A DNA stretch of 64,000 bases from Microgenomates group bacterium (lineage in GTDB: Bacteria > Patescibacteriota > Microgenomatia > UBA1406 > GWC2-37-13). The first letter of the stretch is position 1. Every line of letters starts with the position of its first letter. Below are positions 28,825-58,137 of the stretch, in pieces. The position numbers and the translations under genes were made by a program. Under the pieces are notes generated by a model. The model searched no databases. It was not told the origin of the DNA and saw nothing but the letters and a program-made list of their open reading frames with translations. The stretch covers positions 4,548 to 68,547 of the forward strand of contig JBAQNR010000007.1 in NCBI GenBank assembly GCA_049304035.1, in the 5' to 3' direction.

Positions 28825-30282
28825 CTATTTTGTATTCGGACTATCCTTATCCACAATCATCCACCACCTCTTATGTCTATCTTCACCTTTCGTTTCCTGT
28901 TCGGATATGAGTTCCAGGGGTATTCCGTCTTCGGCTATGATTGAGTTGATACTGTTGATTCCTCTATTCCTGTAGTTTGTATTCTTGGGGGAGAATATGA
29001 GATAAAAGAACTTGTCCTTGAATGTTTCCTGCTCACTCTTGAACATCTTGATGTTCTTCTTGGATAGCAGGAACTCCGCCAGTCCTATGATTTCAAACTG
29101 TTTGTCGGCGTTCTCTTCGTCATCCTCCCATTTGGCTTGAAAGTATTCCACCAGATACTTCTTGTACCCATTGTATTCTTTCATGACCTTTTCAAGAAAA
29201 TCAACCTGATAGGAATAGTTATAGTATTTTGCTTTGTTGATGTTGAAGTCATTGTCCACAATATCATCGAACATTGCCTTTCTATGTTTCTGCTGGAACT
29301 CCTCTTCCCCGAACTGTTCCCTTTCTTCAGCAATATCCAGTTTCATCTTAAGGCTCCCCAGATGATAGTTCAACTCTCTGTTGTGGTGGTTCTTAACAAA
29401 CACCCTTATCTTATCATTCTCGTTCAGGATGCGTTTTCTACCTAACGCTTGAATAAGAGTAATCGGATTGATAAAGTCCAATATGATTGTTTTTACCGAT
29501 TCGTCACAGATGGATATTCCATTTTCCATAACCTTTGTGGTGCAGAGTATTCTTGCAGAAAAGTATTGATTCTCAATGATTTCCTTTTCTGTATTCTGGT
29601 CGGAATATTTATAGAACTCCTTATTGGATTCTGCACAAATAAAAACCGCATCATCGAAACTCTGAGATAGCGCCAACGCCTCTGCCGCACTCGAAGAAAA
29701 ATATATTGCTTTTTCCTCATGTTCCAGGTTTTGTAGGATTGCTTCTGGCGTCCTGTCTTTATAGTAAAACGACAGGGATGAGATATAAGAATAATCCTTT
29801 TCTGCTGTATAGATAAAATCAAACTTGTTTCCAGCGAATAGGGACATCTCTGGTGTAGCTGAAATAAAAACAAATATCTTGTTGGGATAGTCTGTTTCGA
29901 ATATGTCCAGCAGCAGGTCTGTATTCCTATTGAAATCAGAGTCGGCATAGATATAGTGGAACTCATCACATACAATTGCATCAAACTTTGAAAATAAATA
30001 CTGGAGGTCTTCCCTTGTCTCAAGTATTCCATTCTCAATAGACTGGTAATTTCTTACAGTGATGAAATCAGCCTTTTCACGGATGTCTTCTATGATTTGA
30101 TTTTTTAACAGCGTCCTATTTGAAAGAATAAGAATTCTCTTGTTGTTTCTTAAGCACCATTCATACAGAGTATTCTTCGTCCAGTAACTTTTGCCGGTTC
30201 CCGTTTGAGCAGAGATAAGAACCTTCTTTCCTATCCAACTATCAATCTCGCCTATTGGAATTATGTCTGATATATATTTCAT
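28825..30282 (-). CDS. SF2 DEAD/DEAH-box-type helicase
   Basis: Walker A AQTGTGKSYW, DExH box VCDEFHY, FISATP, motif VI QALGRKRI; start set to ATG 30282 (ATGA coupling with the upstream gene). Confidence 0.8.
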   Translation of the reverse strand: MKYISDIIPIGEIDSWIGKKVLISAQTGTGKSYWTKNTLYEWCLRNNKRILILSNRTLLKNQIIEDIREKADFITVRNYQSIENGILETREDLQYLFSKFDAIVCDEFHYIYADSDFNRNTDLLLDIFETDYPNKIFVFISATPEMSLFAGNKFDFIYTAEKDYSYISSLSFYYKDRTPEAILQNLEHEEKAIYFSSSAAEALALSQSFDDAVFICAESNKEFYKYSDQNTEKEIIENQYFSARILCTTKVMENGISICDESVKTIILDFINPITLIQALGRKRILNENDKIRVFVKNHHNRELNYHLGSLKMKLDIAEEREQFGEEEFQQKHRKAMFDDIVDNDFNINKAKYYNYSYQVDFLEKVMKEYNGYKKYLVEYFQAKWEDDEENADKQFEIIGLAEFLLSKKNIKMFKSEQETFKDKFFYLIFSPKNTNYRNRGINSINSIIAEDGIPLELISEQETKGEDRHKRWWMIVDKDSPNTK

Positions 30283-30611
30283 TCTTTGGTTATACCCCAA
30301 GTCCAATCTTCTTTTGTTTGAAATGTGTGCAAAATTATTTTATATGGTAAATTTCTTTCTTTCAAAAATCTTTCGACAACAGCAATGCTATAACCAGAAA
30401 AATCAAATCTTTTTCCTGTAACAAACTGCTCGGAAATCAATTTCACAAATTCGCCAAGTTCTTCTTTGGTGTGAGTATATCCATATTCCATGGAACACTC
30501 CCACATATCTAAGACATCGATAATCCTACTTTGTTCCAGATGCTTAAGTTCATCTATGTCCAGTTTGACATCATACTTTCTATCCAGCATCTTACCATTC
30601 TTTTTATACAT
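30279..30611 (-). CDS. hypothetical protein (110 aa), first gene of the helicase operon
   Basis: track ORF; CAGGAGGAATAA SD. Confidence 0.65.
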   Translation of the reverse strand: MYKKNGKMLDRKYDVKLDIDELKHLEQSRIIDVLDMWECSMEYGYTHTKEELGEFVKLISEQFVTGKRFDFSGYSIAVVERFLKERNLPYKIILHTFQTKEDWTWGITKE

Positions 30612-30636
30612 TTTTTTATTCCTCCTGTCTCCATGT

Positions 30637-30713
30637 GAAAATAAAAGCGGCTCAGGTCGATGCGGAGATTTACACCATTCATCTTACTGTACGGGCAAAA
30701 CTATCCCGAGCCA
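30637..30713 (-). promoter_or_regulatory. structured GC-richer leader ending in a U-tract (attenuator or small RNA candidate)
   Basis: 8-bp long-range stem 30705-30712/30649-30656 (G.U on minus RNA) encloses about 48 nt, followed by GCUUUUAUUUUC, then the SD of 30611 gene; begins at the predicted TSS of the 30720-30748 promoter. Confidence 0.4.
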
Positions 30714-30719
30714 CTTTGA

Positions 30720-30748
30720 ATTATATCATACTATTCTTTTTAAGTCAA
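30720..30748 (-). promoter_or_regulatory. consensus extended -10 promoter (minus strand)
   Basis: TTGACT (30748-30743), 17 nt incl. TGa, TATAAT (30725-30720). Confidence 0.75.
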
Positions 30749-30791
30749 TACCATATAAGACCCAAATAGTCCAAATTACGATATATGGGGC

Positions 30792-30820
30792 TTGACAAAT
30801 AATATATTTAATGATATAAT
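30792..30820 (+). promoter_or_regulatory. consensus extended -10 promoter (plus strand)
   Basis: TTGACA (30792-30797), 17 nt incl. TGa, TATAAT (30815-30820). Confidence 0.75.
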
Positions 30821-30853
30821 ATGGCAATATTTAATAAAAAGGAGCAACCATGG

Positions 30854-31369
30854 ATGACTGAACCATACCTTCAAGGTGATTTCAATAATACTTGTGGAAT
30901 TTTTTCAATACTAAATGCTTATAAAATAATATATGAGGCAAATGAAGATTCAACATATTTTCTGTACGAGGAAATAGTTCGATATTTCATCAAAAAAAGA
31001 ATGTGGGCGGATATTAGTCTTGATGGGATGAACTTTAAACAAATGAATATGGTCATGAGAGACGTTGGTTCAAAATATCTTGATTATAAAGTTTCATGGA
31101 TGTCATTTCCAACACCAACGCTGACCATTTTCTGGAACTCAATGAAATCACACTTAAGAGACAATAAAGGATGTGTTATATTGGGGATAAGTAATAGAGA
31201 GGAACACTGGACAGTGGCAGAAAAATCAACTCCCCGGGGGATTCGTTTATGCGATAGTAATGGGTGGAAATATTTAAGAAAACATATGTGTACTATGTAT
31301 AAGACAGAGTGGAACAGGTACTACTTGACCCCGGCTCAGAATTTTTTTATTTTTGGAAAAGGAGAATAG
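30854..31369 (+). CDS. papain-fold (C39-like) cysteine peptidase candidate
   Basis: Q-x6-CGIFSILNA (oxyanion Gln plus Cys) and EEHWTVA...IRLCDSNG (His, Asp/Asn) arrangement; start moved to ATG 30854 (GGAG SD), because the track ATG 30821 lies at the promoter -10. Confidence 0.45.
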   Translation: MTEPYLQGDFNNTCGIFSILNAYKIIYEANEDSTYFLYEEIVRYFIKKRMWADISLDGMNFKQMNMVMRDVGSKYLDYKVSWMSFPTPTLTIFWNSMKSHLRDNKGCVILGISNREEHWTVAEKSTPRGIRLCDSNGWKYLRKHMCTMYKTEWNRYYLTPAQNFFIFGKGE

Positions 31370-31468
31370 ATGGACGTAACATTTTTAGTCACACGAGCAA
31401 TCCTAATTATCGTGGGACTTCTGGCGATTTATTTTATGAATTTATATCATAACAAGAGAGGAACCTAA
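31370..31468 (+). CDS. small membrane peptide (32 aa)
   Basis: AAAGGAGAATAG-ATG; one TM helix; TAATG overlap with next gene. Confidence 0.4.
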   Translation: MDVTFLVTRAILIIVGLLAIYFMNLYHNKRGT

Positions 31469-31665
31469 TGAACGAATTCGAAGAAGAATTCATTGAGCGA
31501 CGATATTTAGAAATTATGGAAGAGATAAAGGGAAGTTTTGTTTATGGAATTCCAATTGAGGTGGAGGACGAGAGGATGCTTGTTGTTGCGGCGTATATGG
31601 CGGGTCTTCAATCAACATTATATAATCCTACTGAAAAAACAGGAAAAGTGGAGCGTAGACAATGA
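31468..31665 (+). CDS. hypothetical protein (65 aa)
   Basis: track ORF; AGAGAGGAA SD. Confidence 0.6.
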   Translation: MNEFEEEFIERRYLEIMEEIKGSFVYGIPIEVEDERMLVVAAYMAGLQSTLYNPTEKTGKVERRQ

Positions 31666-32123
31666 AAGTAAAAATAGAGTGCGAGTTAAAAATTAACGAA
31701 AAAGAATTGAGCAAAGACAAGAAAGAGAGAGAAAGGGATATAAAAAGCCAAATAAAATGGGCAAAACAAAGAGTTCAAAGGGGCTATGATGAACGAATTT
31801 CATGGAGTATAGACTGGTACTTAAATAGGATGATGCCAAAATGGTTGAAAGAACTGAGACCAGTTGAGGGTAAAACTCAAGGAACACCCATGGAATTTTT
31901 TACTGATGAAGAATGCTCAACATCAGATGGTATTTCAAAAGAAGCGGAAGTCAGGGCAAGAGATGCTTGGAAAAAAGAAATTGATATTATGATTTCTGGA
32001 TTTGAAGCAGCACAAAGACTAAACGATTCTTGGAAGCCTGAAAGTGAAGACAGCGAAGATTGGAAATTGTTCAACGCTGGTTTTGACTCATTCAAAAAAT
32101 ATTATTTTTGTTTATGGGACTAG
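31662..32123 (+). CDS. hypothetical protein (153 aa)
   Basis: track ORF; ATGA overlap; GGAG SD. Confidence 0.65.
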   Translation: MKVKIECELKINEKELSKDKKERERDIKSQIKWAKQRVQRGYDERISWSIDWYLNRMMPKWLKELRPVEGKTQGTPMEFFTDEECSTSDGISKEAEVRARDAWKKEIDIMISGFEAAQRLNDSWKPESEDSEDWKLFNAGFDSFKKYYFCLWD

Positions 32124-33616: not shown

Positions 33617-36256
33617 TTGCGGAAACTACAGCAGTTTTATATCATGTCGTTGCAATCTGCAAGAATCAAGAAGGTTGGAAAAATAGTTTCAACACTTCAA
33701 GATGCGAGAAAAAATAACGAGATTATTTCTGCGGGCGACTCCCAGTTATTTCGGACGTTGAGAAAGGTGTCTAATCACCCCTATGAGGAATCCGAACTGT
33801 TGCGGTTGTGGAATGAAAGAACAAGATTAAAGAAAAAGAAAAACAAAAAAGAGAACGTAAGCAGGATGTCCGAACTTACCTCAAAGATTGACGAGATGTT
33901 ATTTGTTCCAGAGATTGTTTCCATAACCTTCAATCACGTTGCACACTACAAGCAATTTGTGAAAGAGGGCGTGTGGATAAATGGAACAAAATTTGTCCGA
34001 TTTATGGGTAGTGCGGGGCAATTGAGGCGTTCAACCGTCCTTTTTATTCAAGAACAATATTTGGAAAAGGTAAGAGAGATTATCGAGAACGGGTTCAATA
34101 AAGAGGTTCCAGTAAATTTTGGGAAGTTCAATGCGTACTACTCGCTGGTTTCAAGCAGTAGTATTCCTGTCTCGACGCCCAACTACGTTGTCATTCCAGA
34201 TTTGGAAGAAACAAGAGATACTGAGGTTGACTTTGTTGAAGACGACAATGAAACAGTAAACAGAAAAGTTCTTCCCATCGTTCACAATCTTTTTGATGGT
34301 GCTGGAATTATCTCCATGGATTTTGCAAAGCAATGGAGTTTCGATTTAGGATTGGATTATGATGCGTGTTCTTTTATTTTCAGGGCTCCTTGGTGCAAGG
34401 GTCTGTTGACTTCGTTTCCTTTTAGGACACTTGCTGCTGAACTCGGAGTTTCAGAGATTACCGATATTTATGGGGATGTTCACCAGATAGACAACGTTGA
34501 TGTTGTTATGACAAAATCCCAGTTTAAACTGAGTGAGGGGTATTCTTCTATTGCTGAACACAAAACAAACTCCCTAGAGAACAATCTATCTTGGAACGTT
34601 ACAAGAGTCAATCCGAATAAAGACAAAAAATCTTTTATGAGTTCCTACCAGTATATTCAGGTTCTCAAGGATGACGTAGATATAGAAAAACTATGCCGAC
34701 CAACATTGGACTACTTCAATGATGTGTCAATTTTGGACGGAGAAAAAGCGCTAATCTATTTGATGGGTTCTGATATAGAAGACGACTTGAAGTTCAACAA
34801 AATAGAAAATCCGATAGTGAAAGCGCTGTGTTTGAACAAAGATGTGATTCAAGACCCCCACATTAGAAAATCGATTATAAAAAGTCTCAACAGAAAGATA
34901 CGAGATAGTTACTTCGGAAAACTCCTGATAAGCCCAGGAAATTATCAGTTTGTTTTGTTTGACCCCTATGCGATAGCGCAACACGCCTTCGGGTTCGAGG
35001 CAACTGGTCTTTTGGGTGCAGGAGAGCATTATTCACAATACTGGAATAACATGGGCTCAAATCAGGTTGTTGCAGGCAGAAGTCCTTTGACATGGCGCTC
35101 AGAGATGTTGAGGTTGGACTTCAAGAACAACCAGAAGATGGAGAAATATTTTGGGCATCTGTATAGTGGAATAGTGTTTAATGTTCATTCGCCAGATATG
35201 ATGTGCCTTGCGGACGGAGATGGGGACGGAGACGCAGTATTCACATCCGATAATGACGAATTGTTGAAGAACTGTTATGGCGGGGTTCCTGTGACATACA
35301 ACAGAAAGGCGACAACAAAGAATAAAATTTCATACGATGAGTTGTCGGTTTTTGATGCAATGAGTTTTAATTCAAAGATTGGTCTGGTAACGAACAACAG
35401 TAGCACATACTATTCCATGTTGTCTTTATTTCCAGAAGATTCCAAAGAACACCAACTAATTCTAAAGAGACTTGTTATTTGCAGAAAGCAACAGGGAATG
35501 GAAATCGATAAAACAAAAGGTCTTCTTATCGACAGACTCCCAGAATGGAATAAGAAATCAGACGACCCAGTTCACAACAACATCCTGACAAATCGAAGAC
35601 CAATGTGGATGAACTGGCTCTACCCCCATAGAAAGAAAGATTACGACTCCTATAATGAAATGTACGATGTTTATTGCTACGCCAAATACGGGTTCGGTAT
35701 AGACTTTTTATTGAAGAAGGAAGTCGTCACAGAAGAGCAATCAAAAATTATAGAAAGACATAGGAAGTTTTGTCCAGTGGTTGTTGGTTCAACCTCTATA
35801 ATGCAGAGGATTTCAGATTACATGGTTTCAGAGGTAAAAGAACTTAAGGTGTCGGTAAACAACAAAGAATTTGACTATTCGGTATATTTCGATAAATCGG
35901 TTGGTCTAAACGAATCTATTCGTGAACCGCTAAGAGACTTGATGAAATTATATAATAAGTTGAAAAAGAACCTGTTCTTCTCTCCAGACGGAGAAAAATC
36001 GGAAATCGTAGAGTTCATAAAGAACAAGGCTTTTGAAATAAGTTCAGACTTGTCCGAATTGACCAATATGGCTCTGGATATAAACTATGGAACGGGATAC
36101 TCTCAGTCATTCGTGTGGGAAATATTTTCCGATGGAATATTGGACGCCATGAAAAAGAAAACCAGGACTTTTGATTTTCCTGTCCCAAAGGAAAACGGAA
36201 GGATTTCGTTTGCCGGAAGAAGGTTCAACATGGTAAAAGGTGGTGTCGATGAGTAA
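33617..36256 (+). CDS. YonO/RdRP-like two-barrel single-subunit RNA polymerase
   Basis: FIFRAPWCKGLL (compare FQIRxxGxKGvv of DPBB1 in cellular RdRPs) and VVAGRSPLTWRSE...IVFNVHSPDMMCLADGDGDGDAVFTS (compare RxPxxxxGD...DxDGD catalytic loop, related to beta-prime NADFDGD); AGGAGG SD 10 nt before TTG 33617. Confidence 0.7.
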   Translation: MRKLQQFYIMSLQSARIKKVGKIVSTLQDARKNNEIISAGDSQLFRTLRKVSNHPYEESELLRLWNERTRLKKKKNKKENVSRMSELTSKIDEMLFVPEIVSITFNHVAHYKQFVKEGVWINGTKFVRFMGSAGQLRRSTVLFIQEQYLEKVREIIENGFNKEVPVNFGKFNAYYSLVSSSSIPVSTPNYVVIPDLEETRDTEVDFVEDDNETVNRKVLPIVHNLFDGAGIISMDFAKQWSFDLGLDYDACSFIFRAPWCKGLLTSFPFRTLAAELGVSEITDIYGDVHQIDNVDVVMTKSQFKLSEGYSSIAEHKTNSLENNLSWNVTRVNPNKDKKSFMSSYQYIQVLKDDVDIEKLCRPTLDYFNDVSILDGEKALIYLMGSDIEDDLKFNKIENPIVKALCLNKDVIQDPHIRKSIIKSLNRKIRDSYFGKLLISPGNYQFVLFDPYAIAQHAFGFEATGLLGAGEHYSQYWNNMGSNQVVAGRSPLTWRSEMLRLDFKNNQKMEKYFGHLYSGIVFNVHSPDMMCLADGDGDGDAVFTSDNDELLKNCYGGVPVTYNRKATTKNKISYDELSVFDAMSFNSKIGLVTNNSSTYYSMLSLFPEDSKEHQLILKRLVICRKQQGMEIDKTKGLLIDRLPEWNKKSDDPVHNNILTNRRPMWMNWLYPHRKKDYDSYNEMYDVYCYAKYGFGIDFLLKKEVVTEEQSKIIERHRKFCPVVVGSTSIMQRISDYMVSEVKELKVSVNNKEFDYSVYFDKSVGLNESIREPLRDLMKLYNKLKKNLFFSPDGEKSEIVEFIKNKAFEISSDLSELTNMALDINYGTGYSQSFVWEIFSDGILDAMKKKTRTFDFPVPKENGRISFAGRRFNMVKGGVDE

Positions 36257-56965: not shown

Positions 56966-56994
56966 TTGACATATTAGAGATAGTGTGTTATAAT
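56966..56994 (+). promoter_or_regulatory. consensus extended -10 promoter (plus strand)
   Basis: TTGACA (56966-56971), 17 nt incl. TGt, TATAAT (56989-56994); flanked by direct repeat TTATAATT(T)AAG at 56953 and 56988. Confidence 0.75.
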
Positions 56995-57040
56995 TAAGTT
57001 ATCAAAGCAGATAGAATCCTTGGACGCAGGGAATTTCGAC

Positions 57041-57077
57041 AAGGGGTTTGTGCCTCTTCATAAACCCCTTCTGTTTT
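57041..57077 (+). terminator. terminator/attenuator hairpin between promoter and HNH gene
   Basis: 9-bp stem aaggggttt/aaacccctt, 12-nt loop, followed by CTGTTTT. Confidence 0.55.
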
Positions 57078-57105
57078 GAAATATTATAATAAGAGGATTA
57101 TAAAA

Positions 57106-58137
57106 ATGACAATGGGAAAAAGAAAGACAAAAAAAGAGATTCAATCCCAAATAGATTTGATGCATGGTGTCGGAAAAATTAAAATAACAAAATACACTGC
57201 CGTTAGGAACAAGGGCGGCTTCAAGTGTTTAGTTTGCGGGCATAGATGGACAACTTTTGTCGCCAACGTTATAAAAAGAACGGGTTGCCCAATATGTGCC
57301 ACCGATGGTCTTCGCCTTTCAATGGATGAGGTAAGAAAAATTGTTGAAGACAACGGAGCGGAACTTATATCTAAAAAATATAAGAACACAAAAGAACACC
57401 TAAAAATAAAATTTACAGAATGTGGACATGTTAGAAAAATGTCTCTGTATGCAATCCAACAACGACAAGGATGCAAATGCCGAGCCCAAGATAAATTCAA
57501 AGAAACATTGTCGGAAAAATGTTCCGATAAATTAAATGTTATTTTAAAAGAAAAGAACTATGTTCTACTCAAAAGAGAAGCCATCATGAATTGGGATTCT
57601 TTTATATCTTATAAATGCGATATTGGACACATAGTAGAAAATCAAACATATAGAGATTTTTCAAGAAGAAAAAAATGCAAACAATGTTGCCAAGATTCTT
57701 GGGGAGAAAAACAAAGAGGATGTCTCGGAAACAATTGGAAAGGTGGGATAACATTTTTTAGAATCCATGCTCGAAAATATTTGACCCAATGGAAAAAGGA
57801 TTCTATGAAAGAATCTAATTATAAGTGTATAATAACCGGTGACAGATTTGATGACATACACCATTTATATTCCATGGACAAAATATTACGGGACGCACTT
57901 TATGAACTAGGAATTGACATGAGAGAGTTCGTAAAAGACTATTCCCAAGAGGAAATAGATGCTGTTTCCAAAAAAATAGTCGAACTTCACGATTCCCATC
58001 CTCTGGGTGTTTGCCTGAGAAAAGATATTCACGCTTTGTTCCATAGTGTTTATGGATATGGAAATACCGACGAAGTTCAATTTTATGAATTTAAAGAAAA
58101 AATAAAATCCGGCGAAATTATAATACCGGAAATATAA
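57106..58137 (+). CDS. HNH homing-endonuclease-like protein with N-terminal zinc ribbons
   Basis: CLVCGHRW...CPICA repeats; C-terminal ITGDRFDDIHHLYS ... DIHALFH HNH-like; ATG 57106 with AGAGGA SD. Confidence 0.55.
   Translation: MTMGKRKTKKEIQSQIDLMHGVGKIKITKYTAVRNKGGFKCLVCGHRWTTFVANVIKRTGCPICATDGLRLSMDEVRKIVEDNGAELISKKYKNTKEHLKIKFTECGHVRKMSLYAIQQRQGCKCRAQDKFKETLSEKCSDKLNVILKEKNYVLLKREAIMNWDSFISYKCDIGHIVENQTYRDFSRRKKCKQCCQDSWGEKQRGCLGNNWKGGITFFRIHARKYLTQWKKDSMKESNYKCIITGDRFDDIHHLYSMDKILRDALYELGIDMREFVKDYSQEEIDAVSKKIVELHDSHPLGVCLRKDIHALFHSVYGYGNTDEVQFYEFKEKIKSGEIIIPEI

Follow-up and report, generated by a model that had tools for sequence, protein, structure and literature searches.

What is done to the transcripts of a very strong early promoter by the folded leader that separates it from a replication helicase? 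The locus lies in a 64-kb stretch of DNA (64,000 nucleotides, here called the window) that forms part of the 130,778-bp contig G000:C7. This contig, with a GC content of 0.362 against 0.37-0.41 in the other contigs of the 1.3-Mb bin, looks like a large phage genome, with an exonuclease, a terminase and structural genes on its plus arm, many small genes on its minus arm, and a point of divergence between the arms at 30720-30820. Since RNase J and RNase Y are both encoded in the bin, above curated cut-offs, and the named relatives of the helicase are Bacillota, the Firmicute rules of promoter use and mRNA decay are the right frame for the leader. A megablast search of GenBank phages gave no match. 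The first and last 20-mers of G000:C7 each recur elsewhere in the contig and the corresponding 30-mers do not, which may reflect a genome that is circular or permuted and was assembled with a short overlap.

The divergent promoters and the leader in the window

Transcription of the two arms is predicted to begin at a pair of divergent consensus promoters (Table 1). Two near-perfect extended -10 promoters about 43 bp apart had been claimed from the sequence, and this was borne out: 43 bp separate the -35 hexamers, both promoters carry the TG extension, and no other sites with at least 11 of 12 matches and this extension were found in a 20-kb scan. From the position of the -10 element, leftward transcripts are predicted to start at 30713-30715. 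The rightward promoter has a short leader that is unstructured on folding, followed by an SD (AGGAG) and an ATG at 30851/30854, and the other consensus promoters of the phage likewise have short plain leaders or drive tRNA-Met. This tRNA-Met(CAU) gene, which lies outside the window (L133:343-469, minus strand, corresponding to G000:C7 ~107742-107868), is driven directly by an exact consensus extended -10 promoter. Divergent exact extended -10 pairs on both strands also occur in five of the related loci described below (L011, L012, L081, L122, and L123), with the pattern TTGAC-N15-TGNTATAAT and -35 gaps of 9-32 bp compared with 43 bp in the window.

Table 1. Features of the leader locus, its neighbors and the second leader (window coordinates)
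Feature	Coordinates	Strand	Details
Rightward consensus extended -10 promoter	30792-30820	+	TTGACA-17-TGaTATAAT, 12/12 match
Leftward consensus extended -10 promoter	30748-30720	-	TTGACT-17-TGaTATAAT, 11/12 match
P1 5' arm	30705-30714	-	GUGGCUCGGG; begins at most 1 nt from the predicted 5' end; covariation
J1/2	30701-30704	-	AUAG; family consensus (A/C)UAG/AUAA (alignment A7)
P2 hairpin	30682-30700	-	UUUUG[CCCGUACAG]UAAGA
J2/3	30677-30681	-	UGAAU; family consensus ends AAU (alignment A7)
P3 hairpin	30659-30676	-	GGUG[UAAAUCUCCG]CAUC; loop L3 30663-30672 with conserved AUCUCC
P1 3' arm	30647-30656	-	CCUGAGCCGC
U tract	30638-30646	-	UUUUAUUUU; 8 U in 9; zero spacer after P1
SD-like purine box	30628-30633	-	UGGAGA; complementary to UCUCCG of L3
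Real SD to start codon of orf110	30609-30626	-	AGGAGG 30626-30621, A-rich spacer, AUG 30611-30609
orf110	30279-30611	-	First operon gene; 110-aa orphan without family or homologue
SF2 (DEAD/ResIII) helicase	28825-30306	-	485-aa database form would start at 30282
Canonical intrinsic terminator	28699-28671	-	12-bp stem, 5-nt loop, U tail; ends the two-gene operon
YonO-type single-chain RNA polymerase	33617-36256		Pfam RdRP PF05183
Second copy, promoter to ATG	56966-57106	+	Consensus extended -10 promoter 56966-56994
Second junction leader	57002-57079	+	MFE -33.8, z -5.45

The leftward transcript has a leader of ~100 nt that opens with a long-range helix, P1, for which an 8-bp stem (30705-30712 with 30649-30656) was correctly given in the original prediction; two further pairs extend it to 10 bp (30705-30714 with 30647-30656), of which seven are G-C and two are G.U. 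The claim of a single wobble specific to this strand was right in kind but not in number, as there are two (G30707.U30654 and U30713.G30648), both of which become A.C mismatches on the plus strand. The roughly 48 nt enclosed by P1 are indeed richer in G+C (0.42 versus 0.33 in the intergenic region); they are not a loop, however, but the two conserved hairpins of a three-way junction. The minus-strand RNA from 30714 to 30637 (78 nt) folds at -25.7 kcal/mol (z -3.09; 1 of 200 shuffles was as good), whereas the plus strand of 30637-30714 folds more weakly (-15.2 kcal/mol, z -1.0). The comparative junction fold scores -15.1 kcal/mol in the window against -24.5 for the MFE, i.e., 9.4 kcal/mol worse, and the P2 stretch (30682-30700) pairs differently in the window's own MFE. 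For this copy, P1 is the only secure helix.

P1 and the segment that follows it have two of the features expected of an intrinsic terminator, a G+C-rich stem of at least 5 bp and a U tract within 0-2 nt of the stem (UUUUAUUUU abuts P1). In place of the usual loop of 3-8 nt, the arms of P1 hold 48 nt folded as two hairpins, and because this "loop" is 48 nt long, a consensus terminator scan of 29500-32000 called zero terminators. Past the U tract, the order foreseen in the original prediction (U tract, then the SD of the first gene) was found, with the difference that a conserved SD-like UGGAGA box stands between the two. There is no ATG, GTG or TTG 5-12 nt 3' of this box in the window leader. 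An SD-like sequence that lacks a start codon is also a mark of 5' stabilizers. Structure at or close to the 5' end would be a second such mark, and P1 lies 0-1 nt from the start predicted by the -10 position. Within 30612-30646 of the minus strand, part of the U tract (UUUUAUU) can pair without a mismatch with AAUAAAA, which lies between the SD and the AUG of orf110, and does so in the full-leader MFE, where the box and the SD are enclosed in a loop; an equivalent pairing (AUUUUAU/AUAAAAU) is present in L011 and is weak in other members.

Of the "helicase operon" originally envisaged, the helicase is indeed part, although the operon is short, consisting of orf110 and the helicase, whose start orf110 overlaps, up to the terminator listed in Table 1. 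Promoter candidates between the U tract and orf110 amounted to a single 9/12 match (30639-30610) that would start transcription inside orf110, so there is no credible promoter for orf110 of the kind that would set the leader apart as an sRNA gene with its own promoter and terminator. Two further candidate features were rejected. A leader peptide from the AUG of the J2/3 "AAUG" has no SD, and its frame through AUCUCC differs among members; a candidate antiterminator, formed by L3 and the 3' portion of the P1 5' arm (GGGAU:AUCUC), is present in the window and absent from its relatives.

A covarying leader family in related phages

Homologues of the helicase were found in metagenomes down to ~40-58% identity, and their loci were fetched. 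Leaders of the same build as that of the window are present in L011, L012 (identical to L013), L021, L023, L055, L081, L115, L117, L122, and L123, and a longer variant is present in L022 and L083. The family thus has 13 members, the window and 12 metagenomic phage contigs, several of them interrelated, with the same SF2 helicase downstream; the phages that carry these leaders are large and uncultured and have both this helicase and a YonO-type RNA polymerase. Other close relatives (L014, L016, L116, L118, L120, L124, L019, L020, and L024) have short unstructured leaders. In L082, the place of the leader, behind the early promoter and ahead of the helicase, is taken by a genuine tRNA-Arg(UCU) (L082:1030-1103, plus strand), followed by a U-rich stretch and GGAG; ARAGORN detected this tRNA as a control and found no tRNA or tmRNA genes in the window.

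MAFFT alignments of the leaders were structurally inconsistent, and a covariance model was therefore bootstrapped from two close relatives, being seeded from L122 and L123 only, with a structure of our own. This first model ranked the leaders of L115, the window, L081, L023, L021, and L011 above every other hit in the 332 kb searched. A second model, built from those eight leaders, added L012 (E 0.0065) and the previously unseen L055 (E 0.011). L117, L022, and L083 were assigned by eye, their leaders not having been retrieved by the models. In the resulting alignment of 10 leaders (A7), in which pair counts lean towards the structure because the sequences were aligned to the covariance model, 95.8% of cells pair, compared with 56.4 +/- 3.0% after shuffling (0 of 500 shuffles reached the observed value) and 29-48% when partners were slid. 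Double changes occur at every one of the 18 pairs, and a covariation score of 1.006 compares with 0.28 in shuffled alignments and at most 0.16 in those with slid partners. P3 is paired in 100% of cells, with double changes in each of its five pairs. RNAalifold returned the same three helices (covariation term, -7.39), and the junction appears in the single-sequence MFE of 8 of 12 members. Cells with G.U outnumber those with A.C by 16 to 2, which fixes the transcribed strand.

Conservation and covariation in homologous leaders had been set beforehand as a check that could refute the original prediction, and both were found. A search of Rfam, also proposed at that time as a check for a riboswitch or other known family, yielded no family match: cmscan of 29500-32000 against Rfam 15 at E <= 10 gave four chance-level hits, none of them in 30600-30750. 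The leader is a real covarying RNA element, and its family is absent from Rfam.

Wider searches did not enlarge the family. The helicase alone had no relatives in IMG/VR or in 189 genomes of the host family, where the leader DNA gave short chance matches only, and a search with the YonO-type polymerase for more such phages returned nothing. A GTDB scan with a helicase profile found only distant prophage helicases (at most 35% identity over the full length), and the second covariance model detected no leader in those that were searched. The motif CCCGTACA..GAATG..ATCTCCG gave two hits in IMG/VR, both in GC-rich coding sequence and regarded as chance.

Across the family, P1 pairs the extreme 5' end of the transcript with a segment ~50-60 nt downstream. 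It comprises 6-10 bp, with 1 non-canonical pair in 101, and lies ~0-4 nt from the predicted start behind every promoter that matches the pattern exactly; its arms, 45-70 bp apart, differ in sequence in every phage with complementarity kept. P2 is a variable hairpin, while P3 has 4-7 bp, zero non-canonical pairs and a loop that carries (A)UCUCC. J3/1 (0-2 nt) leads into the P1 3' arm, which is followed by an A/U-rich tract of 8-14 nt. In a scripted count of 12 members, 9 have at least six U among the 9 nt that abut P1; about half of the members have at least seven in this stretch, and L055 is also U-rich here (UUUUAUUAU). The tract is weak or absent in L011, L117, and L083 and weak in L022. The terminator- or attenuator-like look that had been remarked on thus holds for P1 and the U tract in the window and in about 9-10 of the 13 members, but not in L011, L117, and L083, which are without the tract.

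Beyond the tract lies a purine box, found 8-14 nt after P1 in all 10 core members (variants GGAGA, GGAGAU, GAGAUG, GAGGC, GGGGAUA, and GGAGAGA), and then the first gene's SD, from which the box is separate in most members. The L3-box duplex has an energy of -5 to -11 kcal/mol. In the window, L011, L012, L021, L115, and L122/L123, the box is the best partner of L3 in the whole downstream leader; for L023, L081, and L117, the best partner tabulated is the true SD, which is near-identical to the box in sequence. Changes that preserve L3-box pairing were seen in L012 (C-G and G-C), L117 (C-G), and L055 (U.G and U-A). Cognate energies differed from non-cognate ones with a p of 0.014, and a position-wise shuffle gave a p of ~0.07, so covariation between loop and box is only suggestive.

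In 10 of 12 members, where 1.7 would be expected, a self-complementary tetranucleotide (GUAC, UGCA, GCGC or GAUC) lies in the P2 apical loop (0 of 20,000 simulations reached 10), and the P2 apex is dyad-symmetric in most members, e.g., GGTTGCAACC. The loop of the window, CCCGUACAR with the palindrome GUAC inside it, is shared with L011 over a different stem. Hairpin selection alone does not predict such palindromes; loop-loop RNA dimerization and recognition by a dimeric protein are possibilities.

The gene that follows the leader varies. It is the helicase in L011, L012, and L023; a GIY-YIG (SegE-like) endonuclease in L055, L115, L123, and probably L122; a D12 (adenine) methylase in L117; and a 68-aa ORF in L021 and L081. 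Judging from these gene orders, the gap between leader and helicase is an insertion hot spot for homing endonucleases, a methylase and orphans (slot coordinates, L055:869-1498, L115:111-959, L123:900-1499, and L117:608-1528). The leader stays with its promoter while the first gene changes, which indicates that the box belongs to the element rather than to one gene's ribosome-binding site. The idea that orf110 is a decayed homing endonuclease was rejected, as it has no similarity to the endonucleases of the relatives.

A second leader of the same design is present on the plus strand of the window, at 57002-57079. Its 10-bp P1 (UCAAAGCAGA/UCUGUUUUGA) begins 1 nt downstream of the predicted start and is followed by J1/2 (UAG) and two hairpins; the loop of P3 (CCUCUU) can pair with the true SD (AAGAGGA, 57091-57097) of a zinc-finger ORF with its ATG at 57106. 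This ORF had earlier been called an HNH endonuclease; Pfam offers a weak DUF4379 treble-clef match and nothing more specific. With filters off, this leader was the second-best hit of the R2 covariance model in the window (21.2 bits, E 0.12; noise up to 17 bits), and the hit, at 57001, begins exactly at the predicted start. We regard this second copy as weak. Its P3 together with CUGUUUUG also looks like a canonical terminator. No further copies were found in the contig or bin by covariance-model search, a hit at L133:13526 having been rejected as coding sequence.

Attenuation, stabilization and other readings of the leader

A G+C-rich helix that abuts a U tract in most members, in a position behind a very strong promoter, points to attenuation. 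Our leading interpretation, to which we assign a probability of about 0.45, is that the leader serves as a promoter-proximal attenuator and 5'-end cap for transcripts of the host RNA polymerase; in broader terms, it probably throttles or protects the helicase messenger. The element would act in cis on transcripts made by the host sigma-A RNA polymerase. The pre-folded P2/P3 junction would bring the arms of P1 together, and P1 would close as the U tract is transcribed, whereupon a fraction of polymerases would release an RNA of ~73-77 nt with paired ends and a 3' end predicted at ~30638-30642. Attenuation of this kind would limit, or time, the transcription of orf110 and the helicase from a promoter that is constitutive and very strong. 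In read-through transcripts, the 5' end would stay buried and the purine box would be carried along, and mRNA stability or translation may then depend on pairing of the box with the P3 loop or on its binding by 30S subunits. Conservation of the junction nucleotides suggests a phage or host factor that would read the junction.

The attenuator interpretation draws on the stability of the 10-bp P1 (z -3.09) with a U tract directly after it, on the covariation of the family, on a 9-nt stretch with at least six U behind P1, as counted in 9 of 12 members, on the placement of P1 ~0-4 nt from the predicted start, on the independence of the leader from the first gene, and on a second leader of the same design behind another consensus promoter of the phage. 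Several observations count against it, however. The branched 48-nt interior is far from a canonical loop of 3-8 nt, and the phage has plain hairpin terminators elsewhere. L011, L117, and L083 are without a convincing U tract, and termination therefore cannot be a universal function of the family. A purine box that is reached only after the U tract could not affect termination there, no alternative (antiterminator) pairing proved to be conserved, and the junction fold is 9.4 kcal/mol worse than the MFE in the window while the counts from A7 lean towards the structure. Since a box past the U tract can matter only in read-through RNA, neither a pure terminator nor a pure small RNA accounts for the whole element.

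The chief rival, which is possible though it does not have our preference, is a Firmicute-type 5' mRNA stabilizer in which P1 hides the 5' end from RppH and RNase J1 and the start-less SD box holds a 30S roadblock, following the logic of STAB-SD, the aprE leader, and the SP82 polypurine sequence. The U-rich tract would then be a mere unstructured spacer or an RNase Y site, with no significant termination. The closeness of P1 to the predicted start (0-4 nt in most members), the box 8-14 nt after P1 in the ten core members, and the RNase J and RNase Y of the bin all speak for stabilization. A simple 5' hairpin would suffice for this purpose, however, and stabilization gives no reason for a conserved junction, for the P3 loop or for the constant nucleotides of the junction; 30S binding would be hindered by a loop that, as an anti-SD, is complementary to the box; at least seven U in the 9 nt abutting the stem, as in about half of the members, is more than a spacer needs; and the operon so protected is only ~2 kb long. 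Attenuation and stabilization are not mutually exclusive. Because the junction nucleotides and the anti-SD loop are explained by neither, a factor-dependent switch is also suggested, in which a ligand or phage protein at the junction would decide whether the P3 loop pairs with the decoy box or the true SD, whether P1 closes, or both, with a transcriptional or translational read-out depending on the member. The conserved AUAG and AAU of the junction and the AUCUCC loop would fit such a switch, as would the mixture of members with and without a U tract, which resembles the mixed expression platforms of riboswitches, and the equal or best pairing of the loop with the true SD in L023, L081, L117, and the second leader. 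We nevertheless consider it unlikely, given that no known aptamer was matched, that the downstream genes are variable and non-metabolic, and that the loop-box covariation is only suggestive (p = 0.014 and ~0.07).

A discrete small RNA of ~75 nt, terminated or processed and acting in trans on the SDs of phage or host mRNAs with its leader position incidental, is improbable to a similar degree. A strong promoter and a terminator-like end would yield a compact, tRNA-sized RNA, a real tRNA-Arg occupies the same slot in L082, and a second unit exists at 57002-57079; on the other hand, the downstream genes have no separate promoter, so the operon must be transcribed through the element, a conserved box lies past the U tract, each genome has a single copy, and no target was identified. 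Very improbable, in our view, is an element that works as DNA, its inverted repeats being bound as operators by a dimeric repressor that acts on the early promoter, or else a similarity due to chance, in either case with no RNA function. The dyad-symmetric P2 apex of most members and the two adjoining promoters would suit an operator, but G.U, a mismatch in DNA dyads, prevails over A.C by 16 to 2, the P1 arms lie 45-70 bp apart and differ in each phage yet remain complementary, the stems vary in length, and the plus strand folds poorly. A more ambitious proposal goes beyond the attenuator interpretation and is rather unlikely, if somewhat less so than the switch or the small RNA: the leaders may represent a new class of phage regulatory RNA, a factor-responsive junction attenuator in which the P3 anti-SD toggles between decoy box and real SD, the P2 loops kiss or dimerize, and the device has been reused to restrain the homing-endonuclease cassette.

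Known systems and early gene control

Promoter-proximal terminators are known from phages, as at lambda PR'-tR', where a short 6S RNA is made until Q acts. As at that locus, a strong constitutive promoter is followed here by a stem and a U tract within ~80 nt, and a short RNA would be made unless polymerase reads through. Instead of a simple hairpin, however, the stem closes a conserved three-way junction; it starts at +1, termination is a prediction here, and three members are without a U tract. No Q-, N-, nut- or put-like element was identified. Three-way-junction riboswitch aptamers of the purine class and similar ones are another point of comparison; these measure ~65-75 nt, and their P1 closes a junction of two hairpins and governs a P1-dependent expression platform. 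The leader shares their size, the P1-closed junction of two hairpins and, as predicted, a platform that depends on P1, but it has no Rfam hit at E <= 10, other junction sequences, and a non-metabolic gene context.

Stabilizing 5' structures in Firmicutes include the 5' stem-loop of the aprE leader, the STAB-SD of cryIIIA, and the SP82 polypurine sequence (PMC3997798). The leader resembles these in having a structure at the predicted transcript start and a start-less SD-like sequence, in a host with RNase J and RNase Y. The known stabilizers need only a hairpin and/or an SD, however, and are without a conserved junction, an SD-complementary loop or a U tract (PMC3997798). In phage T4, RNA structures that sequester the ribosome-binding site restrain the homing endonuclease genes I-TevI, segB, and mobE (PMC2988022). 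Here too, a hairpin has a pyrimidine stretch complementary to an SD, and endonuclease genes follow some of the leaders. In T4, by contrast, the SD lies inside the hairpin stem and relief comes through a late promoter within the structure (PMC2988022), whereas the leader presents its anti-SD in a junction loop, and in the leaders of helicase genes the nearest anti-SD partner is the decoy box and not the real SD. The conserved junction nucleotides and the anti-SD loop would also be consistent with masking of the ribosome-binding site of phage homing endonucleases (PMC2988022).

The phage's own polymerase may respond differently to the element. Most domains that are conserved among multi-subunit polymerases are missing from the YonO family, and the beta flap, which is needed for hairpin-dependent pausing and termination, is among the domains that multi-subunit polymerases evolved for regulation (PMC5467207). 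In view of this domain loss, a transcript made by the phage polymerase might ignore the leader; this is speculation, and no leftward promoter for the phage polymerase is known.

In sum, the way in which large Firmicute phages with a YonO-type RNA polymerase control their early genes has hardly been studied, and the leader stands at the first decision point of this control, where host polymerase transcribes from the strongest promoters with the replication helicase downstream. The leader family could reveal a compact and portable attenuator or stabilizer module. Given that the slot it guards is a hot spot for endonucleases, a methylase and orphans, the element would also shape the expression of incoming selfish genes.
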